Assembly (NCBI GenBank): GCA_963745025.1
Contig: CAVUWD010000011.1
Span: forward strand, 32,001-96,000
Length of the DNA stretch: 64,000 bases
DNA from: an uncultured delta proteobacterium
GTDB lineage: Bacteria > Desulfobacterota > Binatia > JACPRU01
Direction of reading: 5' to 3'
Both the position numbers and the translations under genes were made by a program. Position 1 is the stretch's first letter, and the number at the start of each line of letters is the position of its first letter. Under the pieces are notes generated by a model, which saw only the letters and a program-made list of their open reading frames with translations, was not told where the DNA came from and searched no databases. Positions 31,917-61,019 of this stretch are shown in pieces.

Positions 31917-33419
<1,503 letters not shown>

Positions 33420-36798: not shown

Positions 36799-36854
36799 AG
36801 CCCATGTAGTAGGGCCCCGGTCTTCGCCGAGAACGCGCCGCCAAGACAGAAGAC

Positions 36855-36966
36855 GCGGCTGGCTGCCGTCGATCCGTACTCGGGTCGACGGCAGCCAGCC
36901 GCAACCGCGCGGAGCGCGGAAGGGAATCGCCCTGCGGATTCGTTCATCGCTTCCGCACTCTGCGCG
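36855..36966. repeat. multi-hairpin repeat element, copy A (two hairpins)
   Basis: gcggctggctgccg-tcgatccgtactcgggtcga-cggcagccagccgc followed by aaccgcgcggagcgcggaag...cttccgcactctgcgcg. Confidence 0.85.
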
Positions 36967-36981
36967 CCGGCTGCTCGACGA

Positions 36982-38019
36982 ATGATCCGAGACACCCCGC
37001 GCGCCCTCGGCTACCGCATGCCCGCCGAGTGGGAGCCACACGCTGCGACGTGGCTCTCCTGGCCCCACAACGTCGACAGTTGGCCCGGAAAGTTCGAGCC
37101 CGTGCCGGACATCTTCGCCCAGATCGTCGCCACGCTCCACGAGCACGAGGCGGTCCACATCCTCGCCGGCAGCGCCGATCTCGAGGACTCGGCACGCCGG
37201 GCGCTCCGCGCGCGCGGCTGCGAAGCGCCGAACGTGCGCTTCTTCCGGATCCCCACGAACGACGCCTGGATGCGCGACCACGGGCCGATCTTCGTCGTCC
37301 ATCCCGAGCGCGGGCTGGCGCTCACGAAGTGGAAGTACAACGCCTGGGGCGGCAAGTATCCGCCCTACGATCTCGACGACCAGGTGCCGGCGCGGATCAA
37401 CGAAGATCTTCGCTTGCCGGTCTTCGAGCCCGGCATCGTCCTCGAAGGAGGATCGATCGACGTGAACGGTCGCGGGACGTTGCTGACGACCGAATCGTGT
37501 CTCTTGAATCCGAATCGCAATCCGGGGCTCGCCCGGCTCGAGATCGAAGAACGCCTGCGCGCCTATCTCGGCGTGGAGAACGTGCTCTGGCTCGGCGACG
37601 GGATTGTCGGCGACGACACCGACGGGCACATCGACGACCTCAGCCGATTCGTCGATCCGACCACCGTCGTCACTGCCGTCGAGGACGATCCCGCCGACGA
37701 GAACTACCGCGCGCTGCAGGCGAACCACGATCGGTTGCGAGCGATGAAGGATCAGAGTGGGCGGCGGCTCGACGTCGTCACGCTGCCGATGCCGCCCGCG
37801 ATCTACTACGACGGCCGCCGCCTTCCAGCGAGCTACGCGAACTTCTACATCGGCAACGGCGCCGTGCTGGTACCGGTCTTCGGCCACCCCCGCGACAATG
37901 TCGCCTGCGATACGCTCGCACGCCTCTTTCCTGGGCGTCGAATCGCGCGGATCCCGTCGACCGATCTCGTCTGGGGGCTCGGCGCGATCCATTGCGTGAC
38001 CCAGCAGCAGCCCCGCTAA
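36982..38019 (+). CDS. aguA: agmatine deiminase
   Basis: MPAEWEPH, DAWMRDHGP, EGGSIDVNG, DDTDGHID, GAIHCVTQQQP. Confidence 0.95.
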   Translation: MIRDTPRALGYRMPAEWEPHAATWLSWPHNVDSWPGKFEPVPDIFAQIVATLHEHEAVHILAGSADLEDSARRALRARGCEAPNVRFFRIPTNDAWMRDHGPIFVVHPERGLALTKWKYNAWGGKYPPYDLDDQVPARINEDLRLPVFEPGIVLEGGSIDVNGRGTLLTTESCLLNPNRNPGLARLEIEERLRAYLGVENVLWLGDGIVGDDTDGHIDDLSRFVDPTTVVTAVEDDPADENYRALQANHDRLRAMKDQSGRRLDVVTLPMPPAIYYDGRRLPASYANFYIGNGAVLVPVFGHPRDNVACDTLARLFPGRRIARIPSTDLVWGLGAIHCVTQQQPR

Positions 38020-38131
38020 GGGCAAGCTCGACTTTCGGGATCCGACCGCCGCGACCGGCTCGACGTTCTGTAGCGACCGAATCGATCGTCGGATTGACTG
38101 AGTGCCTGCGGAATCCTACCTTCGGCCGGTC

Positions 38132-39802
38132 ATGGCGGATGCCAAGGAGATCGACGAGGCGCGGCACGCCTGGGAAGAGCGGGCGGTCATCAAGACGCTC
38201 AAGAAATCTCCCGAGCGCCGGGAGAAATTCGAGACCAGCTCCGGCGTCGAGGTGAAACGGCTCTACACGCCGTCCGACACCGCGAGTCACGATTACCTCC
38301 GCGACGCCGGCTTTCCCGGCGACTATCCCTTCACCCGCGGCGTGCAGCCGACGATGTACCGCGGCCGATTCTGGACGATGCGGCAATACGCGGGCTTCGG
38401 CACGGCGGAGGAATCCAACCGCCGCTATCGCTATCTTCTCTCGCACGGCACGACCGGTCTCTCGGTCGCGTTCGACCTGCCGACGCAGATGGGTCTCGAC
38501 TCGGACCACCCGCGCGCCGTGGGCGAGGTGGGCCGCGTCGGCGTCGCCATCGACTCGCTCGACGACATGGAGACGCTGCTTCGCGGCATCCCGCTCGACA
38601 AGGTTTCCACCTCGATGACGATCAACGCGACCGCGTCGATCCTGCTCGCGCTCTACCTGGCGGTCGCCGAGAAGCAAGGCGTGCCCTGGGAAAAGGTCAA
38701 CGGCACGGTCCAGAACGACGTGCTCAAGGAATACATCGCCCGCGGCACCTACATCTATCCGCCAGCGCCGTCGATGCGCATCATCACCGACATTTTCCGC
38801 TTCTGCACCGAGCGGGTGCCCAACTGGAACACGATCTCGATCTCGGGCTACCACATCCGCGAGGCAGGCTCGACGGCGGTTCAGGAAGTCGCGTTCACGC
38901 TCGCCAACGGCATCGCCTACGTCGAGGCGGCGCTCGGTGCCGGTCAGAGCGTCGACGATTTCGCACCGCGTCTCGCGTTCTTCTTCAACGTCCACAACAA
39001 TTTCTTCGAGGAGATCGCCAAGTTCCGTGCGGTGCGTCGGCTCTGGGCGAAGATCATGCGCGAGCGCTTCGGCGCCAAGGAGCCGAAGAGCTGGATGCTC
39101 CGCTTCCACTCGCAGACCGCGGGTTCGACCTTGACCGCGCAGCAACCCGACAACAACGTGGTTCGCGTGACGGTGCAGGCGCTCGCCGCCGTGCTCGGTG
39201 GCACGCAGAGCCTGCACACGAATTCCCGTGACGAGGCGCTCGCGCTGCCGAGCGAGGCGGCGGCCAAGCTCGCGCTGCGAACCCAGCAGATCGTGGCCTG
39301 CGAGTCCGGTGCGGCCGACACCATCGATCCCATGGCCGGCAGCTACTACGTCGAGTCGCTGACCGACGAGATCCAGGGCCGCGCCGAGGAATACCTCGGA
39401 CGGATCGACAAGATGGGCGGCGCCGTGCGGGCGATCGAGGCAGGCTTCCAGGCGCGCGAGATTCAGAACGCGGCCTACCGCTTCCAACAGGACATCGAGA
39501 AGAAAAGGGAGATCGTCGTCGGCGTCAACGACTTCGTCGAAGACAAGGAGTTGCCGACCGAGATTCTACGGATCGATCCGAAGCTCGAAGAGGAGCAGAA
39601 GGTGCGGGTTCGGGCCGTGCGGGCCCGTCGCGACGCGACGCGCGCCGCGCAGGCGATGGAGGCGCTCGATCAAGCGGCCGCGGGCCGCGACAACCTGATG
39701 CCCGCGATCATCGAGGCCGTGCGGAGCTACGTCACGCTCGGCGAGATCTCCGACGTGCTCCGGCGCCGTTTCGACGAATACCGTCCGCAGATCGCAGTCT
39801 GA
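38132..39802 (+). CDS. methylmalonyl-CoA mutase large (substrate-binding) subunit, split type
   Basis: [44 protein letters not shown]; no B12-binding domain. Confidence 0.9.
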
Positions 39803-39807
39803 AGAGC

Positions 39808-39860
39808 GGCTACCGGCTTCCGGCAAAGACATCGCGCACTCTATTGCGGTAGCCGGCAGC
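39808..39860. repeat. GGCTACR heptamer inverted-repeat element, copy 5 (short)
   Basis: ggctaccggcttccggcaaagac ... ggtagccggcagc; left arm identical to part of copy 2. Confidence 0.75.
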
Positions 39861-40028
39861 TGCATCGGCCGGAGACGGTTCGCGACCAACGGGAGCGATC
39901 CGCAATGCAGCCTCCTCGCGCGGGAGACGCTTCCGCTCGCCTCACAAGTGAAGCGGGTGTCAAGCATCTGCGAAAGTTTGCGCTTCCCGTTTACAGCCGA
40001 GCCACGACGCGCTATCGAGACCAGATCG

Positions 40029-42140
<2,112 letters not shown>

Positions 42141-42192
42141 CGCTCCGGCGACGACTCAGGCTTGGCCACACGCGCTGGAAATTCCTGAAGCC

Positions 42193-42381
42193 GCTGGATC
42201 TTCCGGTCGGCCCGTGCTCGGGTCGACCGGAAGATCCAGCCACCGCGCGCAAGCGCGGAGAGCAATAGACCATCTCGTGGGTTATTAGCTTCCGCGCTCC
42301 GCGCGGTTGCGGTCGGTTGTGATCGGCCCGTACTCGGGTCGATCACAACCGACCGCGCTCTTCGTCGTTCCGAAGCATTCG
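42193..42381. repeat. multi-hairpin repeat element, copy B (three hairpins; inverted relative to copy D)
   Basis: two flanking hairpins with ccgt(a/g)ctcggg core around a central cgcgc..agcgcgga/tccgcgctccgcgcgg hairpin. Confidence 0.88.
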
Positions 42382-42435
42382 AGGCGAAGACTGAGGCGTC
42401 ACGCGGCGCGAAATTTTCTCCGCGAAATTTTATTC

Positions 42436-42464
42436 TTGACTCCTCCGTTGACGAGTCCTAAAGT
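42436..42464 (+). promoter_or_regulatory. sigma70-type promoter with AT-rich upstream tract
   Basis: TTGACT-17 bp-TAAAGT, preceded by aaattttctccgcgaaattttattc. Confidence 0.7.
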
Positions 42465-42470
42465 GACCAC

Positions 42471-42575
42471 GGTGCTCGATCGGTAGTGAGCACCGAGATC
42501 GGCGACTCTCTGGGGTCGCCCGGGGCTGCTGAAGGAAGAAAAGGATCCGTTCTTCTCTCAGCGGCCTTCGTTTTT
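42471..42575 (+). ncRNA. candidate small RNA or attenuating leader (three hairpins plus terminator)
   Basis: hairpins ggtgctc/gagcacc, ggcgactc/gggtcgcc and ggctgctga...tcagcggcc, followed by cgttttt. Confidence 0.55.
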
Positions 42576-42599
42576 CCCGTGTCTCGCTGCTTGCTATAG

Positions 42600-44633
<2,034 letters not shown>

Positions 44634-44718
44634 GCAAGGAGGCTACGTTACAGGTCGCTCCCGTTGGCCGCGATCCCGGCCGGTCGCACAGACTGCCGAG
44701 CGAGCAAAGGAGGTTCCC

Positions 44719-45945
44719 GTGGAGGCATCGAGCTCCGAGACCCGTATCTTCTCTGGCATCCGCGTGCTGGATTTCACCCAGTATCTCGCCGGGCCGACGG
44801 TCACGCGCTTCATGGCCGAGCTCGGCGCCACGGTCATCAAGGTCGAGAGCGCGCCCGGAGGCGATCCGTCCCGGCAGCTCCCCTTCATTCGCGACGGACG
44901 CAGCGCCTACTTCGTCCAGCAAAACCGCGGCAAGCGGAGCCTGTGCGTCGATCTCTCGAAGGAGGAGGGCGTCGCGCTCGTGCGCGAGCTGGCAGGGAAG
45001 GTCGACGTCGTGGTCGAGAACTTCGGCCCCGGCGTTCTCGACAAGCGGGGCCTCGGCTCGGCGGATCTGTGCTCGAGCCATCCCGGGCTGATCATGGCAT
45101 CGATCTCCGCCTTCGGGCGCACCGGGCCACTCGCTGGCAAGGTCGGCTTCGACCTCATGGCGCAGGCGTTCTCCGGCATCTGTCACATGACGGGCGACCC
45201 GGCAGGACCGCCGCAGTTCGTTCACGCGGGCATCGCCGACGTCGTGGCCGGCGTGCACGCGTTCGGCGCGATCGCGGCCGCGCTCTTCCATCGCAGCCGT
45301 ACCGGCCGCGGCCAGGCCATCGACATCGCGCTCGTGGACTCGCTCTATCACGCACACGAGCTGAACGTTCAGGCGTTCGCCAACAGCGGCGGCGCCTACG
45401 TGCCGATCCGCGGCGGCTCACAGCATCCGCTGACGGGCCCCTACGGCATCTATCGCGCTCCGCAGGGCTGGATCGCGCTCCTGGTGCTCGACCGGCAGTG
45501 GCCGGGGATGGTAGCGGCGCTCGATCGCCCCGATCTGCTCGCGGACCCTCGGTTCGCGACCGGGCCGGCGCGCGGACAGAACCGCGCCGAGCTGACCCGG
45601 ATCGTCGAGGAATGGATGGGCACCTTCGCGAGCGATGCCGCCGTGCTCGAGAGGCTCGAGCGTCACCGCGTGCCGGCGGCTCCCGTGCTCTCTGTCGCCG
45701 ACACCGTGAGCCATCCGTATTTTCAAGCACGCGAAATGATCCGACGCGTGCCGGATCCGATTCTCGGCGAGGTGACGATTCCAGGATTTCCGCTCAAGTT
45801 CTCCGAGTTTCCCGAACTGCCCGCTCTCCAGGCGCCGCTCCTCGGCGAGCACAACGCGGAGGTGCTTCGCGAGCAGCTCGGCTTCGATGACGCCCGCGTG
45901 CGCGATCTGACCGAGCGCGGGGTGTTGCACTCGAATCGGAGGTGA
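44719..45945 (+). CDS. family III CoA-transferase (CaiB/BaiF)
   Basis: RVLDFTQYLAGP, LGATVIKVE, NRGKRS, ENFGPG, APLLGEHN. Confidence 0.92.
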   Translation: MEASSSETRIFSGIRVLDFTQYLAGPTVTRFMAELGATVIKVESAPGGDPSRQLPFIRDGRSAYFVQQNRGKRSLCVDLSKEEGVALVRELAGKVDVVVENFGPGVLDKRGLGSADLCSSHPGLIMASISAFGRTGPLAGKVGFDLMAQAFSGICHMTGDPAGPPQFVHAGIADVVAGVHAFGAIAAALFHRSRTGRGQAIDIALVDSLYHAHELNVQAFANSGGAYVPIRGGSQHPLTGPYGIYRAPQGWIALLVLDRQWPGMVAALDRPDLLADPRFATGPARGQNRAELTRIVEEWMGTFASDAAVLERLERHRVPAAPVLSVADTVSHPYFQAREMIRRVPDPILGEVTIPGFPLKFSEFPELPALQAPLLGEHNAEVLREQLGFDDARVRDLTERGVLHSNRR

Positions 45946-45949
45946 CCGC

Positions 45950-46225
45950 GTGGGGGCAGTCCGCGTCGAGCTTCGCATCCAGGGACGCGTGCAAGGAGTT
46001 TTCTACCGCGCCTCCGCCCATCGGCAGGCGCGGGTGCTCGGTCTCTCCGGCTATGCGGAGAATCTCGACGACGGCTCCGTCGGTGTCGTCGCCGAGGGAG
46101 AGGAATCGGCGATCGAGAACTTCATCGCCTGGTGCCGCATCGGGCCGCCATCGGCGCGGGTGCGCCGCATCGACATCACGCGCACCCCGCCAACCGGCGA
46201 GTTCACCGACTTCGAGGTGCGCTAG
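45950..46225 (+). CDS. acyP: acylphosphatase
   Basis: GRVQGVFYR, GYAENLDDGSV, GPPSARV. Confidence 0.92.
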   Translation: MGAVRVELRIQGRVQGVFYRASAHRQARVLGLSGYAENLDDGSVGVVAEGEESAIENFIAWCRIGPPSARVRRIDITRTPPTGEFTDFEVR

Positions 46226-46260
46226 ACGTCTCCCCCACCCCAGGTGTTTCGGGCCACACT

Positions 46261-46279
46261 CTCTCCCCAATGGGGAGAG
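46261..46279. terminator. hairpin between convergent genes
   Basis: ctctcccc-aat-ggggagag. Confidence 0.4.
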
Positions 46280-46294
46280 GCGCTCTGCTCCCCC

Positions 46295-46507
46295 TTACGG
46301 CGCCTTCGGCCGCTGTGGCGGGGCGTCGACGTCGGTGTCGGTGACGAACGGATTCAGGCCGCCGCCGAGACGCCCTCCGGGCGGCAAAGTGGGCCCGGGC
46401 GCGGTCGTCTGCCACCTCACGGCCGGCCCGCCGCCGTGAAAATAGTCGCGCTCGTAGATCCAGTAGACGCACCCCAGCAAAACCAGCAGAAGAATCCATC
46501 GAAGCAT
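46295..46507 (-). CDS. small membrane-anchored hypothetical protein
   Basis: MLRWILLLVLLGCVYWIY; starts 3 bp after upstream stop. Confidence 0.55.
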   Translation of the reverse strand: MLRWILLLVLLGCVYWIYERDYFHGGGPAVRWQTTAPGPTLPPGGRLGGGLNPFVTDTDVDAPPQRPKAP

Positions 46508-46510
46508 CGC

Positions 46511-47401: not shown

Positions 47402-47508
47402 GAGATCCTCCTTGCCGTCGACCGAAAGATAGAGCGGGCCTCCGTTGAAAGCGAGCGTGGCCATGGGTTAGGAGCCGAAGATCACGATCACGCGTGCGGG
47501 AGGCTCGC

Positions 47509-49161: not shown

Positions 49162-49177
49162 TCGCCCTTCCTCCTCC

Positions 49178-50101: not shown

Positions 50102-50148
50102 GCGCCGCCCAACCTCGAAGCGAAAATGATTTCGGCCAAGAAGCGTGG

Positions 50149-50265
50149 CGAGCCCGCACCCGACTGGAGCGCGTCGCGAGCGCCGGATGAATCGCGGGGC
50201 CGTCTTTGCAGGCGCGAGAGGCGTCTCGGAAGAAGCTCGGGGCGGCCCAGTCGGGTGCGGGCTCG
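50149..50265. repeat. perfect 19-bp inverted repeat (REP-doublet-like)
   Basis: cgagcccgcacccgactgg (50149-50167) / ccagtcgggtgcgggctcg (50247-50265). Confidence 0.8.
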
Positions 50266-50354
50266 GGCGCGAAGGCTCACCGCACGGCGGTGCTGCACTT
50301 TCTCGAGCGGCTGGCGGATTGACAGCGGCGCGATCGCGTTCGACAACCGCTCGC

Positions 50355-51107: not shown

Positions 51108-51193
51108 GGGTCGGTACCGTCCCGCGATCCACAAAGCCCTGATCCCAGAGCACGGCGGCAGCCGAGATCCCGCATCTGGGCGGCTCGATCGTG

Positions 51194-52645
51194 TCAACGC
51201 GGCAGCAGATGAATCGAGCGTCCGGCCAGGTCGAGAAGCGGCGTCTCGTAGAACCCGAACACGACGACGGCCGTTGCCAGCGAAAGCGTCAGGCACGCGT
51301 CGTAGGGGCCGATCCGCAGCGTCGGCTCTGCCGCCTCCCCCACCCCCATCACGAACAAGACCCGCGTATAGGCCAGGAGCGAGAGTACGCAGTTCGCGAG
51401 GGCCAGGAGCATGACCCCCTCGAGACCCATCGGAATGGCGGCGGCGAAGAGGTGGAGCTTGGCGAAAAACCCGACCAACAACGGCATGCCGGCGAGCGAG
51501 AGAAGGAACAGCGCGAGCGAAAAGCCGGCCAGAGTGCCGCGTCCGCGCAGCAACCCTCGGCAGGCATCCAGGTCGTCGCTGCCGTTCGCTCGCGTGATCA
51601 ACGCCGCGAGGTGAAACGCGCCGAGCGATGCCACCGAGAACGCCGCCAGGTAGAAGAGCGCCGCTTCGAGACCACGATCGCTCGCCGACGCGAGACCGAG
51701 CATCGCATAGCCGACGTGCGCCATCGACGTTGCGACGAGCACGCGCTGAAGCGATCGTTCGCGGAGCGCGCCGAGGTTGCCGATCGTCATGGCCGCGACC
51801 GACGACGCTGCCAGGGTCCGGCTCCAATCGAGACCCGCCGGATGCGCCCACCGTCCTTCCGCGCCTGGCTCCGAGAGCACGCCGACGAGCAAGCGACCCG
51901 AGAGCGCCAGTCCCGCCGCCGTGAAAGCGACGGCGACGAACGCGTCGAGCGATGACTCTTCGCCCGCCTCGCTCGACGCGGTCGCAATCAACACGCGGCT
52001 CGGAAAGGCAACCAGAAACGCGGTGGCGGCAAGCGCGAGGACGAACTCGTTGCCCGGCGCCAGCTCGAACACCGCCCGGTGGACACCTTCGTAGTCTGCC
52101 GAGCCGCAAAATCCCGCGATCCATGCGACGGCGCCGAGCATCGACACCGACACGACCATCCCGGCAAACCGCCCGGGGAAGGTGCCGACTGCGGAATCCG
52201 AGCCGTGAACCAATCTCCAGAGCGCGAGGCTGGCGATCTCGACCGAGACGTAACCGATCCAAAGGCTCGCGGCCGACGCCATCAAATCGAGGGCGAGCGC
52301 CGCAACGAGCGCAAGCGCGCAAGCGTCGCCTTCTGACTCGCCTGCGAACCGCGCCGACTCCAGCGCGATCCACAACACTGCGACCGTGGCGAGGCCGATG
52401 ACGATCTTGAAGAACACGGCGAAGCCGTCGACGACCAGCGCGCGCTCGAAGATCCAGACCTCCCCCCAGCCCGCGAGGCGGGCGGCAAGGAACACCGAGA
52501 CCGCGGCGCCGAGGATGGCGAGCTCTCCGAGCCCGCTGCGATCGAGGCCGCGAAGCCGGGCGAGCGCCGCAACGGTGAGCGCCGTCGCCGCCAGCGCCAC
52601 CTCGGGCCAGAAATACTGCCAACTCTCGAGAGCGCTGAGCTCCAT
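51194..52645 (-). CDS. nuoN: NuoN-like antiporter-type membrane subunit, divergent and orphan
   Basis: PEVAL, VDGFAVFFK, MTIGNLGAL, SMAHVGY, LFLLSLAGMP..GFFAK. Confidence 0.75.
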   Translation of the reverse strand: MELSALESWQYFWPEVALAATALTVAALARLRGLDRSGLGELAILGAAVSVFLAARLAGWGEVWIFERALVVDGFAVFFKIVIGLATVAVLWIALESARFAGESEGDACALALVAALALDLMASAASLWIGYVSVEIASLALWRLVHGSDSAVGTFPGRFAGMVVSVSMLGAVAWIAGFCGSADYEGVHRAVFELAPGNEFVLALAATAFLVAFPSRVLIATASSEAGEESSLDAFVAVAFTAAGLALSGRLLVGVLSEPGAEGRWAHPAGLDWSRTLAASSVAAMTIGNLGALRERSLQRVLVATSMAHVGYAMLGLASASDRGLEAALFYLAAFSVASLGAFHLAALITRANGSDDLDACRGLLRGRGTLAGFSLALFLLSLAGMPLLVGFFAKLHLFAAAIPMGLEGVMLLALANCVLSLLAYTRVLFVMGVGEAAEPTLRIGPYDACLTLSLATAVVVFGFYETPLLDLAGRSIHLLPR

Positions 52646-52901
52646 TCGGCGGCGGCATGATAGCCGGTGTCCCGCAACAAGAGGAGGCGCGGCAGCCGCT
52701 CGGAAAGGGAATACGGGAGAGGGACTCGCGGCTGCCGCGGGGAGAGCGACCCCACGACAGCAGATTCCGTGCCGCGAACAAATGCGCGAGAATCAGGCGT
52801 GCGCTATTTGCGGTGCACATTCTTGTCGCGCGCTGCGCAACGATTGTGAGCTTCGGTTATCGAGAGGCGAAGAAGTTCACGTCAGATTGAGAAACACGAC
52901 G

Positions 52902-53993
52902 CTACCGCGATCCATCCGCCGGACCGCTGACTCCGGCAGACTCGAATGATGCCATCTCGTCGAGGACTCGGCCTGCGGCGTCGAGAATCGGCAGCGCCAG
53001 CACGGCGCCGGTCCCCTCGCCGAGCCGAAGCCCGAGATCGAGGATCGGCTCGAGCCCGAGCGCGGTGAGCACGGCGCGGTGCCCGGCCTCCACCGAACGA
53101 TGACCGGCAAAGAGGTAGGCTCGCGCCGCCGGTGCGATCGCAACCGCGAGGAGCGCCGCCGCCCCCGCGATGAATCCGTCGAGGAGCACCGGCAGTCCCG
53201 CCGCGGCGCCGCCGAGGATGACGCCGACGAGGCCCGCGATCTCGAAGCCGCCGACGCACGCGAGCGCCTCCAGCGGCCGGTCGCGGCGCGGCCGATGGAG
53301 CGCGAGCGCCCGCTCGACGACGGCGATCTTCCGCGCGAGCGCTTCGTCGCCGATTCCCGTGCCGCGGCCGGTCACTTCCGCGGGCGGTCGCTTGGTGAGC
53401 ACCGCGGTCAAAGCAGCGGCCGCCGTCGTGTTGCCGATCCCCATGTCGCCGGTCGCAACGAGCCGGCATCCGTCGACGGCGAGCTCGGCGACGATTGCGG
53501 CGCCGGCGTCGATCGCCTGCTCTGCCCGGAGCTCGCTCATCGCAGGCCCGACGGTCATGTCCGCCGTACCCGGCCCGAGCGAGCAGCGCCGTACATCCGC
53601 GGGCCAGTCATGAGCTCCCGCGACTCCCATGTCGACGACCACGGTACGCGCCGCAAACTGTCGCGCGAGCACGTTGATCGCGGCGCCCCCGGCGGCGAAG
53701 TTCTTCACCATCTGCGCCGTGACGGCGGCCGGGTAGGCGCTCACACCTTGGCGCGCGACGCCGTGATCGGCTGCCATGACGACGACCGCCCGAGGCGAGG
53801 TGGCGAACGTGGTCGCGCGGTGGATCGCAGCCAGCCGCACGGCGATCTCCTCGAGCCGGCCGAGGCTTCCCTGCGGCTTCGTCTTCTGGTCGAGAAGGCG
53901 CTGCACCACAGCCGCCACCTCCGAATCGGGCGCGGCGATCCGCGCGGCTAGAGCATTCCAGTCCATCCTCACCTCACTGGGGCGGCGGTTCAT
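52902..53993 (-). CDS. cobT: nicotinate-nucleotide-dimethylbenzimidazole phosphoribosyltransferase
   Basis: TKPQGSLGRLE, ADHGV, GDMGIGNTT, GGFEI, LGLRLGEGTGA. Confidence 0.95.
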   Translation of the reverse strand: MNRRPSEVRMDWNALAARIAAPDSEVAAVVQRLLDQKTKPQGSLGRLEEIAVRLAAIHRATTFATSPRAVVVMAADHGVARQGVSAYPAAVTAQMVKNFAAGGAAINVLARQFAARTVVVDMGVAGAHDWPADVRRCSLGPGTADMTVGPAMSELRAEQAIDAGAAIVAELAVDGCRLVATGDMGIGNTTAAAALTAVLTKRPPAEVTGRGTGIGDEALARKIAVVERALALHRPRRDRPLEALACVGGFEIAGLVGVILGGAAAGLPVLLDGFIAGAAALLAVAIAPAARAYLFAGHRSVEAGHRAVLTALGLEPILDLGLRLGEGTGAVLALPILDAAGRVLDEMASFESAGVSGPADGSR

Positions 53994-54000
53994 TTCGGCG

Positions 54001-54519
54001 TCACTTGATGCGCAGCGCTTGGCCGGCCACCAGCAAGAACAGCTCGTCGGCGATCGCCGCCACGCGCTGATTCAAGAAACCGGCGGCATCGCGAAACGCA
54101 CGGGCGAGCGCGCTCTCGGGCACGATGCCGAGGCCCACCTCGTTGGTGACCACGACGACCGCCGAGCGGCGCGAGGAGAGCAACCCGACGAGTTCGTCGA
54201 CCGCTGGCCCGACATTCGTCGTCGCGCAGTCGTCCATCTGGTTGGCGAGCCAGAGAGTCAAGCAATCGATGAGGACGACGCCGCCGCGCTGGCGTCGCAG
54301 AACGGAGGAGACTGCCATTGGCTCTTCCACGGTCCGCCATAGCCGCCCGCGCTCGGCGCGATGGCGAGCGATCCGGGCTGCCATCTCCTCGTCCCGCGCC
54401 TCGGCCGTCGCCACAAACACTCGCGGCGATCCGAGCGATTCCCCTCGAGCGAGCGCAAAGCGGCTCTTCCCGGAGCGGGCGCCGCCTGTCACCAGAACGA
54501 TCGGCGGGCGCTCGCTCAT
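54001..54519 (-). CDS. cobU: adenosylcobinamide kinase/guanylyltransferase
   Basis: GGARSGKS, RIARHR, LIDCLTLW, VTNEVGLG. Confidence 0.95.
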   Translation of the reverse strand: MSERPPIVLVTGGARSGKSRFALARGESLGSPRVFVATAEARDEEMAARIARHRAERGRLWRTVEEPMAVSSVLRRQRGGVVLIDCLTLWLANQMDDCATTNVGPAVDELVGLLSSRRSAVVVVTNEVGLGIVPESALARAFRDAAGFLNQRVAAIADELFLLVAGQALRIK

Positions 54520-55238
54520 GTGGTCGCCCAGAAGACCAGCGCGACGGTTTCGGCGATCGCGCCCGCCGCCCCGAGGACGTCGCCGGTGACGCCGCCGAAG
54601 GCCGACACCGCGAGCCGCCGCACCCCCGCCGCCGTGGCCGCGACGAGCAGTGTGGCGAGCCACCCGCGCGCTCCGGCAACGACGGTCACGAGCCCGATCG
54701 TGACGAGCGTGGCGATGACGACGTCGCCGCCCTCGAGGTCACGAGCGAACCGCGCCCCGAGCCCTTCGTCCCGGGCGCTCGAGGCGCGAAAGCCGCTCAC
54801 CAGCATGGCCCAGCGACCGAGTACCGGCGACACGACGAGCGCCGTCGCGCGAGCGCGGCCGGAGAGTTCTGCGAGCGCGGCGAGATCGGTGGCGACGATG
54901 AGCACGAGCCCGAGGGCGGCGAAAACACCGATCGCGGGGTCGTGCATGATGCGCAGCCGCTCCTGTCGCGTGGAGCCGCCGAGCGCATCGAGGACGTCGG
55001 CGAGGCCGTCGTAATGAATCGCACCCGTCGCCAGCGTCCAGACCAAGAGGATCTCCACGTTGCGGAGGCCTTGAGGAAGAGCCCTCGTGGCGACGTCCGC
55101 GGCGAGGCCAGCGATCCCGAGCACGAGCCCGACCAGCGGAAACGCGCTCGCTCCGAAAGCAGGCGTGGCATTGGACGCGGCGAGCGGCAGGCGCGTCAGG
55201 AAGCGCAGCGCACCGGCGAAGTCGTCAGCGATCTTCAC
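54516..55238 (-). CDS. cobS: adenosylcobinamide-GDP ribazoletransferase
   Basis: FLTRLP, FPLVG, GAIHYDGLAD, GGVTGDVLGA. Confidence 0.93.
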   Translation of the reverse strand: MKIADDFAGALRFLTRLPLAASNATPAFGASAFPLVGLVLGIAGLAADVATRALPQGLRNVEILLVWTLATGAIHYDGLADVLDALGGSTRQERLRIMHDPAIGVFAALGLVLIVATDLAALAELSGRARATALVVSPVLGRWAMLVSGFRASSARDEGLGARFARDLEGGDVVIATLVTIGLVTVVAGARGWLATLLVAATAAGVRRLAVSAFGGVTGDVLGAAGAIAETVALVFWATT

Positions 55239-56055
55239 GCGCAGACTCCCGATCCCCCGTCGCGCTCACGCGGCCGAGCGGCAGGACGTTGAGCTTTCCC
55301 GTGAGATCGTTGCGGTGCACGTAGACGTCGGTGTCGTACACCTCGCGGATCGTCCGATAGTTGAGCACGTCGTCGGGATTGCCGCAGGCGACCACACGGC
55401 CCGCCTTCAGAAAGGCGAGGCGGTTCAGGTAGAGGGCGGCAAGATTCAGATCGTGAAGAACGACGATGAGGGTCATCCTCCGCTCCTCGGAGAGCGAACA
55501 GAGAAGCTCGAAGATCTCCACCACGTGGCGGATGTCGAGAAACGTGGTCGGCTCGTCGAGCAGCAGGACCTCGGGCTCCTGGGCGAGCGCGCGAGCGATC
55601 ACGACCCGCTGCTTCTCTCCCCCGGAAAGCTCGTGAAAGAACCGATCGGCGAGATCGGCGACGCCGGTGCGCTCCATCGCGCGTTCCGCCGCCTGCACGT
55701 CGCGGTCGCCCTCGAAGCCGAACCCGCCGAGGTGCGGGGCGCGGCCCATCAGCACGACTTCCATCACCGAGAACGGAAAGTCGAGCGCCGTCTCCTGGGG
55801 AACGACCGCGATCGAGCGAGCGAGCTCACGCGGCGCATAGGCGTCGAGGTCCCGAGATGCCAAGGTGATTCGTCCCGTCGAGGGACGGAGCACACGGGAG
55901 AGCAGACGAACGAGCGTCGACTTCCCGGACCCCGTCGGCCCGAGGATGCCAAAACGCTCGCCTCGCGGGATTTCGAGCGCGACGTCCCGCAGCACCCCGC
56001 GATCGCGGTAGGCGAAGCTCACACGCTCGATCTGCACGAAGGGCTCTCGGGTCAC
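55225..56055 (-). CDS. btuD: cobalamin ABC transporter ATP-binding protein
   Basis: GPTGSGKST, LSGGEKQR, LLLDEPT, HDLNLA; GTG start inferred. Confidence 0.85.
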   Translation of the reverse strand: MTREPFVQIERVSFAYRDRGVLRDVALEIPRGERFGILGPTGSGKSTLVRLLSRVLRPSTGRITLASRDLDAYAPRELARSIAVVPQETALDFPFSVMEVVLMGRAPHLGGFGFEGDRDVQAAERAMERTGVADLADRFFHELSGGEKQRVVIARALAQEPEVLLLDEPTTFLDIRHVVEIFELLCSLSEERRMTLIVVLHDLNLAALYLNRLAFLKAGRVVACGNPDDVLNYRTIREVYDTDVYVHRNDLTGKLNVLPLGRVSATGDRESAREDR

Positions 56056-56070
56056 GGTAACGCCCCAGTC

Positions 56071-56315
56071 TTTGCTAGAGAAGGGCTCCCGCGTTGTGCG
56101 GCAGAAGGAACGGCGCGTGGTTTTGCGGTCGATCCGTACTCGGGTCGGCCGCAAAACCACGCCACCGCGCGAAGCGCGGAAGGCAATACCCAAGGCGCGG
56201 CTCGAACCGCTCCGCGCTTCGCGCGGTGGCGCGTGTTTGTGTTCGATCCGAGTACGGCTCGAACATAAACACGCGCGCTGATCATTCTGCGACGGCTTTG
56301 CTGTGTTCTAGCAAA
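56071..56315. repeat. multi-hairpin repeat element, copy C, with terminal 9-bp inverted repeat
   Basis: core 56115-56276 with three hairpins; ends tttgctaga / tctagcaaa. Confidence 0.88.
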
Positions 56316-56337
56316 ATCCGGGGCCTTACGCGTCACG

Positions 56338-57381
56338 TCAGATCCCGCGACCTTCCTCCTGCCGTCGCAGCAGGAAAACGAAAAACGGACCGCCGCAGAG
56401 CGCCGTCAGCACCCCGACGGGAATTTCGGTCGGCGCGAACAACGTGCGCGCGGCCGCGTCGGCCCACACCAGAAAGACCGCGCCGCCGAGAAAGGCGGCG
56501 GGAATCAGTAGCCGCTGGTCCGAGCCGAAGGCCAGGCGCAGACAGTGCGGCACGATGAGGCCGACGAAGCCGATCACGCCGCTCACCGAGACCGACGCGC
56601 CGACGAGGAGAGCGGAGGAGAGAAAGCTGACCGTGCGCACGCGATGGACGTCGGCACCGAGCTGGGTCGCCGTCTCCTCGCCGAGCGCGAGCAGATTCAG
56701 GCTTTGCGCTTGCGTCCAAAGAACGATTGCGGGCGCCACGGTGAGCAGCGTGACCAGCGCGACGAGCGAATACGGGCGCTGCGCCAAGCTGCCGCTCAGC
56801 CAGACGAGCACGCCCTGCGCGCGCAACGAGTCCACCAGCGCGGTCACCAGCATGATCACCGCTGCGGCGATGGTGTTGGCGATCACGCCGACCAGCAGAA
56901 GTGAATACGGATTCAGTCGTCCGTGCACGGTCGAGAGGCGGACGATCGCCGCGAGGGTGGCGAGCGATGCCACGAATGCGGCGCCGGGCACGAGGATCCA
57001 TGCCGGGCCGCCGACGCCGAGGGCGAGCACGCCGATCGCCCCGATCGAGGCTCCCCCAGAAATGCCGATCACGTCGGGACTGGCGAGCGGATTGCGGAGC
57101 AGCGCCTGAAGGGCGGCGCCCGCGGCAGCGAGCCCTCCGCCCACGACGGCGCCGAGCAGCACACGCGGCAAGCGACTACGGAAGAAGATCACGAAGTCGG
57201 CGTTCTCGGGATGGGCGAAGTCGAACACGCGCCTGAAGTCGATCGAGACGCTACCCACCATCGCAGCACCGATCAAGCTGAGAACGAGCAGAGCGCCGAG
57301 CGCGCAGATCACCGTGCGGGCATCCTCGCGGGTCAGCCGCGCCCGCCGCGTGCCCAGTCGCAGGGCTTCAAGCCGAATCAC
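56338..57381 (-). CDS. btuC: cobalamin ABC transporter permease (FecCD family)
   Basis: RLPRVL, LRNPLASP..IGISGGA, LGEETATQLG, GFVGLIVPH. Confidence 0.88.
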   Translation of the reverse strand: MIRLEALRLGTRRARLTREDARTVICALGALLVLSLIGAAMVGSVSIDFRRVFDFAHPENADFVIFFRSRLPRVLLGAVVGGGLAAAGAALQALLRNPLASPDVIGISGGASIGAIGVLALGVGGPAWILVPGAAFVASLATLAAIVRLSTVHGRLNPYSLLLVGVIANTIAAAVIMLVTALVDSLRAQGVLVWLSGSLAQRPYSLVALVTLLTVAPAIVLWTQAQSLNLLALGEETATQLGADVHRVRTVSFLSSALLVGASVSVSGVIGFVGLIVPHCLRLAFGSDQRLLIPAAFLGGAVFLVWADAAARTLFAPTEIPVGVLTALCGGPFFVFLLRRQEEGRGI

Positions 57382-58280
57382 CGAACGCCGGCCTCCCCGG
57401 CAAAGGCCTCGGGATGGATCAGGCGCGCAAGCAGCTCCAATCCTTGCCCGACGCGCGGCCCCGGGCGAAGCACCTCGTCGATGCGAATCGTGTGCACGCG
57501 CCCCGCGCTCGCGGCCTCTAGGCCGAGATCGTCGTAGAACGAGCGCGCGCCGCTCGCCTCGTCGCCCATGCTCGAGTCGATGATCACCTCCGGCGAGATC
57601 TTGACCAAGAACTCGACCGACAGCCGCGGCCAGCGCCCGAGGGCAGCCGCAACGTTCTCGGCTCCGGCCGCGCGGAGCAGCTCGTCGAGCAGGTTCTGAT
57701 CGCCGACGGCGATCAGCGGGTTCTCGCCGACGATCATCAATACGCGGACGCGGCGCAGCGGCGCGACGCGGCGGCGAACGGCGTCGACTTGGCCGCGAAG
57801 CCGCGCGACCAGCTCGCGGCCCGCCTCGGGCCGGCCGGCTTCGCCGGCGATCTTGTCGATCGAGGCGTAGATGTCGGCGAGCGTCGGGCCCTCTTCGACG
57901 ACGACCACCTGAAGGCCGAGTTCGATCAGCGACTCGACCGCCTCGCGGTTTCCCGGGCTCGGCACGGCGATGACCACGTCGGGCCGGTGGGCGACGACCG
58001 CCTCGATGTTCGGCTTCAGATAGGAGCCCACGCGGTCCAAGCGGCGCGCCTGCGGTGGAAAATCGGAGAGATCCGAAACCCCGACGACATCCTCCCCCGC
58101 TCCCACGGCAAAGAGGGTTTCGGTGACGGAGGGCGCCAAGGAGACTATGCGCTTGGCCTGGGCCGCATGTGCGCCCTGGCTACAGGCTACAGGTTTCAGG
58201 CTACAGGAAAAGACAACGACACAAAGAAGGATCCTTGCCGGTAGCCTGTAGCCCGTAGCCGGTAGCCGCCGTGTCCTCAA
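57378..58280 (-). CDS. btuF: cobalamin-binding periplasmic protein
   Basis: RIVSLAPSVTETLFA, PNIEAVVA..PD, RPGPR; TTG start overlapping btuB stop. Confidence 0.85.
   Translation of the reverse strand: MRTRRLPATGYRLPARILLCVVVFSCSLKPVACSQGAHAAQAKRIVSLAPSVTETLFAVGAGEDVVGVSDLSDFPPQARRLDRVGSYLKPNIEAVVAHRPDVVIAVPSPGNREAVESLIELGLQVVVVEEGPTLADIYASIDKIAGEAGRPEAGRELVARLRGQVDAVRRRVAPLRRVRVLMIVGENPLIAVGDQNLLDELLRAAGAENVAAALGRWPRLSVEFLVKISPEVIIDSSMGDEASGARSFYDDLGLEAASAGRVHTIRIDEVLRPGPRVGQGLELLARLIHPEAFAGEAGVR
58178..58267. repeat. GGCTACR heptamer inverted-repeat element, copy 6, inside btuF 5' coding region
   Basis: ggctacaggctacaggtttcaggctacagg ... ccggtagcctgtagcccgtagccggtagcc. Confidence 0.88.
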
Positions 58281-60220
58281 AATTCCCCTCCGACGCCGGC
58301 GAGGAAGGCGAGCGGGCGTGCGTCGAATCCGAGCACCTCCTGATAGTGCTCGTCGAATAGGTTTTCGATCCGCGCGAAGATCTTGAACCGCTTAACGATC
58401 TGGGTCGCGAGCGGCCACGAGTACGTCGACGTCAGGTCGACGCGCTGGTAGGCGGGGTTTTCGCGGGCCGCGAAGCCTGCGGCCGGATCGAAATCGAGCC
58501 GATTCCCCACTAGGAGCAAGCGCGCGTCGGCCGACAGGCGATCGCCGCCCTGCCAGCGGTTCGTCAGCTCGGCAGACACGTGGACGGCTCCGCTCTGGCG
58601 CGGCTTGCGTACGCGACCGTCCGTGCTGGCGTCGATGTCGAGGTACGTGTACTCGCCACCGGCGCGGATGCCTTGCAGCAGCTCCACGTTGAGAATCGCC
58701 TCCACCCCATCGACCGTCGAGGCGCCGACGTTCTCCGCGAGGAAGAGACCGTCCGGCTGTGGCACGCCGACGATCAGATCGGTGACGTGGCGGTGAAAAT
58801 AGTTGGCCGACACCAGCACCCGTTCGTCGGCGAGCGGCTGGTCGAATCCGACGTTCACCTCCCAGCTGTGCTCGGCGTCGAGGTTGGGGTTGCCGAATCC
58901 GGGGAAGAAGAGCTGATTCAGCGACGGCGCCTTGAATCCCTGCGCGTAGGTGGCGCGCAGCCGCGTCTTGGTGGCAGCGACGGCGTAACTCGCTCCGCCC
59001 GACGGGCTCACCGCTTCGCCGAACCGCTGGTTGCCATCGACGCGAACGCCGCCCGTCAGCACCAGGCGGCGATCGTCGAAAAACAGTTGGTGGAGCGTGT
59101 AGCCGGCGACGTTGCCAACGCTCTTGTCGAACACGGTGCGGGAGGTGCCGAAGGTCGGGTCCTCGAAGGTCGAGTCGGCGTTTCCGGACTGATCCTCGTA
59201 CTCGATGCCGATCGTGCTCTCGAGCGTGCCCCCGAGCGAGGAGAGCGTCGCACTCGCGTCGCCGGTATACGTCTGCGAGAGAAAGTCCGAGAAGAGGCTC
59301 GTCGTCTCCGCCGCATCGGCCGGGTCGTCGAACTGCTCGTCCTCGCGCGCGTATGAGAAGCCGATCCGATAACGAAGCGCGGGGTTCAGCGCGTGGCTCC
59401 ACTCCGCGCGCGTGTAGTCGACCTGATCCTTCTGGCGCGCGTTGGGATCCGGCGCGGCGAGAAAGTTGTTGCTCGCGAAGTTACCGAACTCGGAGTTGCC
59501 GATGCGGAAGATGACCCGCGCGGTGCCATTCTCGACGAGGTTGGCGTCGAGCCGCCCCGAGGCCACGGTGTTCTCGTAGTCGTCGTTTTCGGGTTTGAAG
59601 CCGTTGGTATGAATGTGCGAGGCGCTGCCGGAATACGCGAAGATGCCGCTCTGGCCGGAGAACTCGCCGACCTCACGATCGGTGCTCGCGTTGCCGCCGG
59701 ACGCCGCAATCGAGCCGCGCGGCGGTCCGGAGCCCTGGCGAGTAAAGATCTGGATCACCCCGCCGACCGCCTCCGAGCCGTAGAGAGTCCCGCCCCAGCC
59801 GCGTAGCACCTCGATCCGTTCGATGTTCTCGGGCGTGAGACCGGCGAAGTCGAATGCGCCTGTCGTCGTGCTGTTCACGCGGATGCCGTCGATCAGCACG
59901 AGCACCTGATCGGCGTCGGCTCCGCGCATGAGGACCGAGACCACCGAGCCTCGCGACCCGCTCTCGATGACGGTGAGCCCCGGTACCTCGCGGAGCGCGT
60001 CGGCAACGGTCGGGACCTGCTTGCGCTCGAGCTCCTCACCGGTGACTACGGTGATCGCCGGCGCCGTCTCCGAGACGCGCTCCGGCGATCGCGTGGCCGT
60101 GACCACCATGGTATCCATCTCGAGTTCGGCGGGCGGCTTCGCCGCTTCGTCTGCTTCCGCCGAGGCGACCCGCCCGGCCGCCGCTAGCAGGCCCCACACG
60201 ATGATCTGCGTTCGCTTCAT
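58277..60220 (-). CDS. btuB: TonB-dependent cobalamin receptor
   Basis: DTMVVTATRS TonB box, plug VLIDGIR..IERIEVLRG..LYGSEAVGGVI, ENLFD, terminal F; downstream of B12 riboswitch. Confidence 0.88.
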   Translation of the reverse strand: MKRTQIIVWGLLAAAGRVASAEADEAAKPPAELEMDTMVVTATRSPERVSETAPAITVVTGEELERKQVPTVADALREVPGLTVIESGSRGSVVSVLMRGADADQVLVLIDGIRVNSTTTGAFDFAGLTPENIERIEVLRGWGGTLYGSEAVGGVIQIFTRQGSGPPRGSIAASGGNASTDREVGEFSGQSGIFAYSGSASHIHTNGFKPENDDYENTVASGRLDANLVENGTARVIFRIGNSEFGNFASNNFLAAPDPNARQKDQVDYTRAEWSHALNPALRYRIGFSYAREDEQFDDPADAAETTSLFSDFLSQTYTGDASATLSSLGGTLESTIGIEYEDQSGNADSTFEDPTFGTSRTVFDKSVGNVAGYTLHQLFFDDRRLVLTGGVRVDGNQRFGEAVSPSGGASYAVAATKTRLRATYAQGFKAPSLNQLFFPGFGNPNLDAEHSWEVNVGFDQPLADERVLVSANYFHRHVTDLIVGVPQPDGLFLAENVGASTVDGVEAILNVELLQGIRAGGEYTYLDIDASTDGRVRKPRQSGAVHVSAELTNRWQGGDRLSADARLLLVGNRLDFDPAAGFAARENPAYQRVDLTSTYSWPLATQIVKRFKIFARIENLFDEHYQEVLGFDARPLAFLAGVGGEF

Positions 60221-60435
60221 GATTCCCCCTCGGGATCGAGGAGCGCGTCGGGCGACAGGCTCCTTGCCGCAGGGCGCGGCGCGATGACCGAGACGGGAAG
60301 GTCTGCGGGAGGCGACTCCTGCCCGTGAACGAAACGGGGGCTGATTTTTCGGGAGGCTCACTCCTGCCACCTTCCCCTTTCGGAAGGCTCGCCGCCCCGG
60401 AAGCGAAGAACTTCGCCGCCGGGCACCTGGCAGTA

Positions 60436-60621
60436 CCGATCAGGCAGGTCTCCTGGCTCGGGCATCATCCGAAACGAGCGGCCTTCCCATCCTCTGCGTG
60501 AGGACAGTGGCCTTCCCTGCTCGTTTCGTCCGCCCTTACAGTTGCGGGGCAGCGCCGGACTCTCACCGGCTTCCCTCTTTTCCGCTCCGGGCCCCATTGG
60601 TCCGGCGCGGGAACCTGACGG
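60436..60621 (-). ncRNA. cobalamin riboswitch
   Basis: minus strand AAGAGGGAAGCCGGTGAGAGTCCGGCGCTGCCCCGCAACTGT, GCCACTG..TGGGAAGG, B12 box GAGCCAGGAGACCTGCC. Confidence 0.95.
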
Positions 60622-60635
60622 CTATGTCGGCAGCC

Positions 60636-60665
60636 TGTTTAGGGTCCGCCGCAGCGCGATGTCAA
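60636..60665 (-). promoter_or_regulatory. possible sigma70 promoter of the btu/cob operon
   Basis: TTGACA-18 bp-TAAACA just upstream of the riboswitch. Confidence 0.45.
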
Positions 60666-60732
60666 GCTCGAGGCGCGGCAGCTCGAGGTGCAGAACCGCG
60701 GCAAGAGGAGGTCTCCCCTCAGTCTTCGTCAC

Positions 60733-60941
60733 GAATGCTGCGCGAAGATGGAACGCGCGGTCGGTTGTGATCGGCCCGGATTCGGGTCGATCACAACCGA
60801 CCGCAACCGCGCGGAGCGCGGGAGACAATAACCCACCGAATCGGCCTATTGCGTTCAGCGCTTCGCGCTGTTGCGCTTGGTTTTCGTCGATCCGAGTACG
60901 AATCGACGGAAACCAAGCGCGTTTTTCGTGTCCGAGCATCC
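60733..60941. repeat. multi-hairpin repeat element, copy D
   Basis: core 60757-60920 with three hairpins; ends gaatgct / agcatcc. Confidence 0.88.
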
Positions 60942-61019
60942 TACAGAGACTGAGGCCCTACAAGAGGAGCACGAATTCGTTCGTATCGACCGCGCCGGGG
61001 CACCGAGAGCGAAAAGCCG

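Follow-up and report, generated by a model that had tools for sequence, protein, structure and literature searches.

A dispersed intergenic repeat family with paired hairpins and IS66-like termini in an uncultured, high-GC bacterial lineage

The DNA considered here is a 64-kb window, positions 32,001 to 96,000 of contig CAVUWD010000011.1 (assembly GCA_963745025.1) of an uncultured delta proteobacterium, in which four copies of one repeat, named A to D, are located between 36.8 and 61.0 kb. The repeats are built of hairpin units arranged as inverted pairs between inverted termini, and two of them are flanked by 8-bp target duplications. The family is real and statistically solid. It is likely to be a MITE (miniature inverted-repeat transposable element) moved by a DDE transposase, and the IS66 family is, with somewhat less assurance, the favoured source of its ends.

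The repeat unit is 71 nt long and combines a 22-bp hairpin, which has a conserved apex and variable, self-complementary arms, with a small conserved hairpin; seven such units are present at the four loci. The main hairpin spans 48 nt, in which 14-nt arms flank a 20-nt apex that is itself an 8-bp stem closed by a TACT loop, and it is followed by the small GC hairpin CCGCGC-loop-GCGCGG and by a CAATA-type centre. Within the window, the apex motif occurs at the seven unit sites and nowhere else (14 matches on both strands versus 2.5 expected; none of 100 shuffles reaches 14). The central stem, described as conserved in the initial annotation, which had been made from the DNA letters alone, is exact at five positions within the copies (36904, 42292, 56164, 56212 and 60806) and has two mismatches at 60856. 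In total, its motif has ten matches in the window versus 3.8 expected, and one shuffle in 100 reaches ten; the other four of the ten matches lie outside the copies and are at chance level. A covariance model scores the seven units at 82-92 bits, and the next unrelated match at 20.9 bits.

This unit is only the core of the element. The full element is 251-273 bp long and consists of two inverted halves of ~120-135 nt each, which end in the inverted termini GTA(A/G)(G/C)GCCYC(A/G)GTCTT, that is, GTARSGCCYCRGTCTT, at both ends of copies B, C and D. Eleven halves or units were aligned, seven from the window and four from three loci (L007, L038 and L084) of one metagenome-assembled genome (MAG) labelled "uncultured delta proteobacterium". 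In this alignment, homology begins ~45 nt outside each hairpin, the ~45 nt of intervening sequence are poorly conserved, and identity falls to 0.26 in the flanks beyond the termini. Mean pairwise identity among the 11 halves is 0.83 for the apex, 0.75 for the central motif, 0.57-0.59 for the arms, 0.52 for the terminal segment and 0.57 for the 18-nt core of the terminal inverted repeat (TIR). The hairpin units delimited in the initial annotation are thus real, but the element extends further, by the ~45 nt of terminal sequence outside each of them. Likewise, the short TIRs it had seen in C and D exist, but as parts of longer termini that start 12 nt further out, and the CTAG it had singled out in C is internal and no target site. 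A reading of this CTAG as an IS5-type target was rejected, since it is placed 12-17 nt in from the terminus, as part of a C-specific variant common to both ends.

On either strand, full elements are predicted to fold into a closed four-way structure composed of a terminal stem, a hairpin, a long central stem and a second hairpin (z = -10.4 to -13.5). Their GC content is 0.60-0.70, and no open reading frame (ORF) with coding-like codon-position GC is found inside them, except for stop-to-stop frames that enter from neighbouring genes. The flanks of the copies are unrelated, as the four window loci and the three MAG loci align only within the element.

All the neighbours of copies A to D are housekeeping genes, and all four sites reported in the initial annotation were recovered, together with its list of seven arm sequences, each of which pairs with its own partner. 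Copy A (about 36809..37014, ~206 bp) lies between a carbon-nitrogen hydrolase gene (stop at 36796-36798) and an agmatine deiminase gene. Its left half is intact, whereas its right half is degenerate and has lost the hairpin; where A ends on the right is tentative, and so is the flanking repeat CCCATGTA / CGCATGCC (5/8). The left unit (36855..36925, plus strand, 92.3 bits) has the arms GCGGCTGGCTGCCG / CGGCAGCCAGCCGC, the apex TCGATCCGTACTCGGGTCGA and the central small hairpin. In the stretch 36982-37022, two ATG codons could open the agmatine deiminase gene. The first, at 36982 inside the degenerate right half, gives the longest ORF; the Pfam match of this ORF begins at residue 12, beside the second ATG at 37018, which falls within the tentative target repeat. 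In one possible reading of this gene, the degenerate end of A would overlap the first 11-12 codons, and copy A may have added or replaced them.

Copy B (about 42148..42402, full, ~255 bp) starts 7 nt past the stop of an arginine decarboxylase gene (42138-42140) and stands upstream of ligA and a sigma-70-like site (42436-42464), with no recognisable flanking direct repeat (4/8). Its left unit, B_L (42193..42264, plus strand, 84.6 bits), has the arms GCTGGATCTTCCGG. Its right unit, B_R (42286..42356, minus strand, 86.3 bits), has the arms GCGGTCGGTTGTGA and an apex that is inverted relative to the other ten halves.

Copy C (56057..56329, full, 273 bp) is placed between the FecCD permease and ABC-ATPase genes of a riboswitch-controlled B12 uptake operon on the minus strand. 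Its termini read GTAACGCCCCAG... and ...CCGGGGCCTTAC, and it is bordered by an 8-bp target-site duplication, GGGTCACG on the left (56049..56056) and GCGTCACG, a 7/8 match, on the right (56330..56337). The left unit (56115..56185, plus strand, 89.1 bits) has the arms GCGTGGTTTTGCGG, and the right unit (56206..56276, minus strand, 82.2 bits) has the arms GCGCGTGTTTATGT / ACACAAACACGCGC with one mismatch. The surrounding B12 cluster (52905-60633, minus strand) is headed by a cobalamin riboswitch (60426-60633, 106.9 bits) and continues with a TonB-dependent receptor, a periplasmic binding protein, the FecCD permease, copy C, the ABC ATPase, CobS and a CobT-like phosphoribosyltransferase.

Copy D (60711..60961, full, 251 bp) lies between the stop of a HerA-like gene (61020-61022, minus strand) and the same riboswitch. 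Its termini are GTCTCCCCTCAG... and ...CTGAGGCCCTAC, and its target-site duplication, AAGAGGAG at 60703..60710 and again at 60962..60969, is perfect over 8 bp, with the preceding C matching too. The left unit, D_L (60757..60827, plus strand, 91.0 bits), has the arms GCGGTCGGTTGTGA, identical to those of B_R and of the left half of the MAG copy L038, and the right unit (60850..60920, minus strand, 84.9 bits) has the arms GCGCTTGGTTTCCG / CGAAAACCAAGCGC with one mismatch. That B should for the most part be D's reverse complement, as stated in the initial annotation, is borne out only weakly (177/250 identical in reverse versus 156/249 in direct orientation): the B_R and D_L halves have identical arms, and the other half does not. 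That the copies are intergenic, two of them inside operons, stands, with the caveat of the agmatine deiminase reading at the right end of A.

Four of the five assessable copies begin or end 7-15 nt from a neighbour's stop codon (36796-36809, 42138-42148, 56329-56340 and L038). The distance is 7-10 nt for A, B and C, ~15 nt for L038 (about 1811-1826) and 58 nt for D, and either a target preference or, in a compact genome, survivorship could account for such proximity. At copy C, the duplication holds the reverse complement of the putative GTG start of the ABC-ATPase gene (56053-56055), and its right copy adjoins the TGA stop of the permease gene (56338-56340, minus strand). When the element and one of the two repeats are taken out, the permease and ATPase genes again meet in a TGA-C-GTG stop/start junction, of the sort typical of coupled genes. 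Where the element faces outwards, its end has the letters ...CTG(A/G)GG(C)C.. at ~7-12 nt from the boundary (56057-56075 and other termini), and at copy C a GGGG thereby stands 7 nt upstream of the ATPase GTG start that the target duplication contains. The terminus of C may, judging from these letters, supply a Shine-Dalgarno-like sequence to the gene whose coupling it destroyed.

The direct repeats of 8 bp abut the inverted termini in the same register at D (8/8, or 9/9 with the preceding base) and at C (7/8). Four full-length copies were examined, namely B, C and D of the window and L038 of the MAG, and these two of them carry the duplication. For random pairs of window positions in a fixed register, the probability of an 8/8 match is 0.0002 and that of at least 7/8 is 0.0022; with a slack of ±3 nt, these values become 0.003 and 0.042.

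The ends themselves resemble those of IS66. In published descriptions, the terminal inverted repeat of the IS66 family starts with GTAAGCG and is accompanied by 8-bp direct repeats (PMC11946415). Among individual insertion sequences (ISs), ISDge4 has the TIRs GTGACTACTCAGCA / GTAACTGCTCAGCA and an 8-bp direct repeat in its own report (PMC12898284), the inverted repeat of ISPsk01 is given as GTAAGCGTCCGGCG... (PMC12888890), and ISPpa5a and ISPpa7 are listed with direct repeats of 8 (PMC3281130). The archetype of the family, the annotated IS66 of the Agrobacterium Ti plasmid NC_002377.1, shows a perfect 8-bp duplication, GCCATCCC, on both sides, directly abutting its GTAAGCC... ends, which read GTAAGCCTCCGG... 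and GTAAGCCCACGG... (inverted ends GTAAGCCTCCGGTGAAGG and GTAAGCCCACGGTGAAGG). Compared with these ends in the duplication register, the outer termini of the window halves match at the following numbers of 14 positions: 10 for A_L and C_R, 9 for C_L, 8-9 for D_R, 7-8 for B_R and D_L, and 4-5 for B_L. Random 14-mers from the window reach at least 10 with a probability of 0.0007 and at least 9 with 0.004. Five of the seven window termini are GTAAGCG-like, namely GTAAGGC in C_R, GTAACGC in C_L, GTAGGGC in A_L and D_R, and GTGACGC in B_R, and D_L and B_L deviate.

Further copies were sought in several collections. In a scan of a genome collection with a degenerate apex motif, true copies made up 3 of the 99 loci among the matches listed, all of them in the one MAG, and the remaining 96 are chance matches to the apex pattern. 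Ten to eleven of these chance matches belong to one conserved Bradyrhizobium region (L024, L049, L053, L057, L068, L070, L075, L076, L081, L096 and L097), whose flanks are nearly identical across many species and which has no hairpin; it is orthologous sequence and not a member of the repeat family. Neither a profile hidden Markov model of the halves nor the covariance model (R1, filters off) added any copy, degenerate ones included, from the window or from the remaining 96 loci, and a blastn search of a plasmid collection with copy D gave no match. The motif strings were absent from a text search of the literature, and searches for myxobacterial repetitive extragenic palindromic (REP) or MITE families and for IS66-derived MITEs likewise left the repeat family undescribed in article texts. 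The characterization in the initial annotation, a MITE-like, dispersed and structure-rich family for which no description was found, is therefore borne out by the Rfam and literature searches.

Pairing is the most striking property of the hairpins. Over 11 units, standard pairs make up 97.7% of 308 pair cells, and 14 of the 28 pairs change on both sides, which is reached neither by any of 500 shuffles nor by slid registers. Covariation is very strong, in line with the view that the stems conserve pairing and not sequence. In the main hairpin, two-sided changes affect 13 of the 22 pairs. Among the 12 arm pairs that vary, there are no one-sided (G.U wobble) cells and three mispaired ones, and wobbles are restricted to two fixed positions of the apex stem, with G.U at columns 18/31 in 5 of the 11 units. 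Arms free of wobbles look like the product of arm matching at the level of DNA, unlike the compensatory drift of RNA.

Contrary to the initial annotation, the arms do not vary freely: they are homologous variants, with an identity of 0.57-0.59 against 0.26 in the flanks, and three halves have identical arms. This identity resembles that of the terminal segment, which is not palindromic, and is below those of the apex and the central motif. The arms diverge along with the rest of the element (Spearman 0.42, p = 0.0016), but with a lag. Thus, B_R, D_L and L038_L show no arm differences while their terminal segments differ by 25-30%, and B_L differs from L038_R by one C-G pair turned to T-A on both arms while the terminal segments differ by 49%. 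A neutral expectation with conversion only (Poisson) predicts ~6 and ~7 pair changes in these two cases against the observed 0 and 1 (P ~0.0025 and 0.008). It follows that the arms are inherited under a constraint on pairing, and that changes in them, slow relative to those of the terminal segments, are rare and come as pairs. The possibility that arms are fresh inverted copies of the target, made at each insertion, was rejected, since three unrelated loci have the same arms and since the arms diverge as the element does.

Between arms that are unchanged, B_R has an apex that reads exactly as the common form in reverse complement. Template switching in quasi-palindromes is described as yielding both arm homogenisation and spacer inversion (PMC8604942), and the mechanism is presented as established in E. 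coli and yeast (PMC7202029, PMC8604942). The inverted apex and the purely Watson-Crick arms fit with such switching between inverted-repeat arms, so the co-diversification of arms by template switching suggested in the initial annotation is a reasonable contributor. Pairing constraint and arm-to-arm template switching probably act together.

The interpretation as a MITE draws on several features. The elements are well under 1 kb in size and have no transposase gene, they carry TIRs and target duplications (at D and C), and their copies are dispersed. Inverted termini together with 8-bp duplications in the IS66 register point to a DDE transposase as the probable agent of movement. The assignment to IS66 in particular, which is favoured by a smaller margin over doubt, is held with lower confidence because no parent element was seen.

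Several observations weigh against this interpretation. In the scan of 55 window ORFs against Pfam, there was no transposase gene, and none of the flanking genes that the initial annotation had thought worth seeking (RAYT, Y1, IS110, integrase or reverse transcriptase) was found in these 64 kb. No parent IS with such termini turned up among the matches listed from the genome collection, where the query was a loose apex pattern. Target duplications are missing at B (4/8) and at L038 (3/8), both counted by eye, and A reaches 5/8 at best. Only 5 of the 11 aligned termini start with GTA or GTG: L007_L, L038_L, L038_R and B_L have diverged from this start, and L084_L reads GTGGGCC only with a 1-nt shift. 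The similarity to IS66 is limited to the outermost 14-18 nt, and the first 130 nt of each IS66 end contain no comparable 22-bp subterminal hairpin, so the family assignment leaves the hairpins unexplained. As the 11 halves share a common ancestry, the shuffle controls overstate significance. Finally, conservation is higher in the apex and the central motif than in the terminal segment and the TIR core, the reverse of what is expected of a passive MITE, and copy A, with its decayed right half, has a flawless left hairpin and apex, which suggests maintenance in place, beyond transposition alone. The structurally constrained hairpins with their invariant apex are thus the one feature that a MITE origin does not fully explain.

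These last observations are also the ones that speak for the strongest competing explanation, in which an element spread by transposition is now kept by the host for a function of its hairpins, either in mRNA (stabilising, processing or uncoupling, as by enterobacterial REP sequences and bacterial interspersed mosaic elements) or in DNA, as cruciforms or protein-binding sites. Apex, central motif and pairing would in that case be preserved by selection acting locus by locus; such a role is compatible with a MITE origin and competes with it only over the conservation of structure. It accounts for internal motifs that outlast transposon ends, for the perfect 22/22 hairpin and consensus apex of the one-sidedly decayed copy A, for the perfect arms of B and L038, which have no target duplication, and for the three of seven loci (A, L007 and L084) that keep one intact unit after the loss of the other; moreover, the two operon-internal copies must be co-transcribed. 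Against it, the only window match in Rfam at the gathering threshold is the cobalamin riboswitch, the elements giving none, and permissive scans of the elements yield hairpin look-alikes of 21-29 bits against thresholds of 50-100. Neither promoter nor terminator scans place the elements above chance, and the hairpins are not followed by T-runs. The arms lack the G.U intermediates expected from compensatory evolution at the RNA level, and, of the arm mismatches, the two that are open to a reading as wobbles fall on the strand opposite to the operon transcript in copy C. The inverted symmetry also makes the two hairpins of any one transcript differ (TACT versus AGTA loops, G.U versus A.C). Taken together, a host function is an unlikely, but still the leading, competitor of the MITE interpretation, and the earlier suggestion of a structured RNA gene finds no support.

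In a second explanation, the pairing needs no selection at all: each quasi-palindrome copies one arm from the other by template switching, mutations are erased or doubled, and the stems drift neutrally as perfect palindromes. The Watson-Crick arms without wobble intermediates and the inverted apex of B_R are what this process would leave behind, and the mechanism is the one documented in E. coli and yeast (PMC7202029, PMC8604942). Its short range would agree with the terminal segments, whose long-range pairing is not maintained (identity between left and right within an element is 0.54-0.66 against a family mean of 0.52), unlike that of the arms. However, pair changes should then accumulate at about the neutral rate, whereas B_R, D_L and L038_L differ at 0 of 14 pairs and B_L and L038_R at one. 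A mechanical homogeniser should also remove the G.T or A.C mismatches that persist in the apex stem of 5 of the 11 units, and the conserved sequence of loop and apex remains outside its reach. As a sole cause, template switching is accordingly rather improbable.

REP elements and REPINs (REP doublets forming hairpins) moved by REP-associated tyrosine transposases (RAYTs) are characterized by the absence of a target duplication, by a GTAG at the foot of a 20-40 nt palindrome and by a RAYT gene flanked by REPs. The initial annotation had considered a REPIN-like substrate of an HUH nuclease. In a fuller form of this idea, the hairpins would be single-stranded DNA substrates of such nucleases (Y1, RAYT/TnpA), REPIN-like or IS200/IS605-like, with GTAG-like termini as the cleavage motif. 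The termini A_L and D_R do read GTAG, and inverted doublets, a conserved element and covarying stems recall the layout reported for REPs and REPINs (PMC3116915, PMC3337134). Nevertheless, the GTAR is found at the outermost inverted ends, some 45 nt away from the hairpin instead of at its foot, these ends match IS66 in the duplication register, D and C are flanked by 8-bp duplications, and the window has no Y1 or RAYT gene. To our knowledge, neither HUH elements (REPINs and IS200/IS605-type elements) nor attC sites make such target duplications. A substrate of this kind is therefore very improbable. The attC sites of integrons have conserved R and L boxes at the base of an imperfect hairpin and stand in cassette arrays beside intI; the repeats share with them the imperfect palindrome and a structure conserved over sequence, but their conserved sequence is at the apex and not at the base, they flank housekeeping genes in ordinary operons instead of promoterless cassettes, no integrase is encoded in the window, and target duplications and inverted termini are present, so that an attC-like or other integrase substrate is already contradicted and has next to no probability.

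With a MITE moved by an IS66-type transposase as the preferred reading, the history of the family may be outlined as follows. The elements would be mobilised in trans by an IS66-family DDE transposase encoded elsewhere in the genome, and each insertion would duplicate 8 bp of the target. Surviving insertions would be those in short intergenic gaps, usually a few bases past a stop codon, with two at operon-internal junctions. The hairpin arms would be inherited with the element and diverge via paired Watson-Crick substitutions, because single mismatches fail to persist. Template switching between the arms during replication, in which one arm is copied from the other and the apex can flip, would resolve mismatches, and a requirement for an intact hairpin and apex, most likely for mobilisation, would filter the variants. 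Recognition during mobilisation is here a first guess at what the hairpin is needed for, and a role at the level of the host is its main alternative.

A more speculative form of this idea, to which only a low probability is given, is that the 22-bp hairpin and its invariant apex serve as a module for structure-specific recognition, read near each transposon end as an extruded hairpin or cruciform by an IS66-type DDE transposase or by a host protein. Pairing and apex would then be selected while the arm sequence would be free, and a DDE element would read shape in the way that has up to now been linked to HUH transposases and integron integrases. Alternatively, the module would have been domesticated as an operon-internal regulatory structure, distributed around the genome by this MITE. 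The IS66-type family of DDE transposases is one whose mechanism is poorly known.

Compared with known systems, the repeats share with IS66-family ISs termini that begin with GTAA, GTAG or GTGA straight after an 8-bp duplication. By our own count, the TIR of ISDge4, a member of the ISBst12 group (PMC12898284), matches the B_R terminus GTGACGCCTCAGTC at 10 of 14 positions. They differ from these ISs in being 251-273 bp long and non-coding, without tnpA/B/C, and in carrying two 22-bp hairpins and a central palindrome that are absent from the first 130 nt of the IS66 ends. Like the bacterial MITEs Correia/NEMIS, ERIC, QMITE2 of Coxiella and MITEPsy1/2, as these are described in two reports, they are small and non-coding, have TIRs, occupy intergenic or operon-internal sites, have target duplications that decay with age, and would give transcripts predicted to fold stably (PMC10969869, PMC3189936). 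Unlike them, they are GC-rich and not AT-rich, conserve their internal motifs better than their ends, and fold into a four-way structure with two autonomous hairpins instead of one long hairpin. MITEPsy2 of Pseudomonas syringae (228 nt, family unknown) has TIRs that contain TGTAAGCC, resembling an IS66-type end (PMC3189936, Table 3), and may, judging by that resemblance, be another unrecognised IS66-type MITE.

With REP/REPIN-RAYT systems, the repeats have in common inverted hairpin doublets, many intergenic copies and pairing kept via double changes. They differ from them by their TIRs and 8-bp duplications, by a hairpin of 48 nt placed 45 nt inside the end, and by the lack of a RAYT gene in the window. 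Quasi-palindrome template switching, as presented in PMC8604942, offers a parallel for arm homogenisation and for the inversion of a spacer, the latter as at the apex of B_R. It is a process of mutation and not an element, and alone it fails to explain the slow evolution of the arms and the conserved apex.

Some features of the window lie apart from the repeats. Two methylmalonyl-CoA mutase genes are present, at 1-1593 and 38102-39802. A PNTB domain (33942-35733) is split over two overlapping frames, as the ORF at 33942-35684 matches PNTB_4TM and profile positions 3-65, and that at 34558-35730 matches positions 67-453 of PNTB (transhydrogenase beta); this split points to a frameshift at about 34.5 kb, be it genuine or an artefact of assembly. 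RTX calcium-binding nonapeptide repeats are found in an ORF of the minus strand at 9504-11495, in a region whose four long, overlapping ORFs leave the gene calls ambiguous.

The family is an ordinary kind of element, an IS66-type MITE on the reading favoured here, with an unusually neat internal structure. The analysis provides a name and a mechanism, at the strengths given above, for a repeat family in an uncultured high-GC lineage, so that annotators can mask it and spot insertions in operons. MITEs tied to IS66 appear to be rarely described; the text of a MITE review (PMC10969869) makes no mention of the IS66 family. Copy C is a clean natural case of a coupled stop/start junction that was split with both genes left intact. 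Because arms, apex and unconstrained terminal segments stand side by side in one element, the family is also a compact test case for separating selection on structure from arm-to-arm template switching in covarying DNA hairpins.

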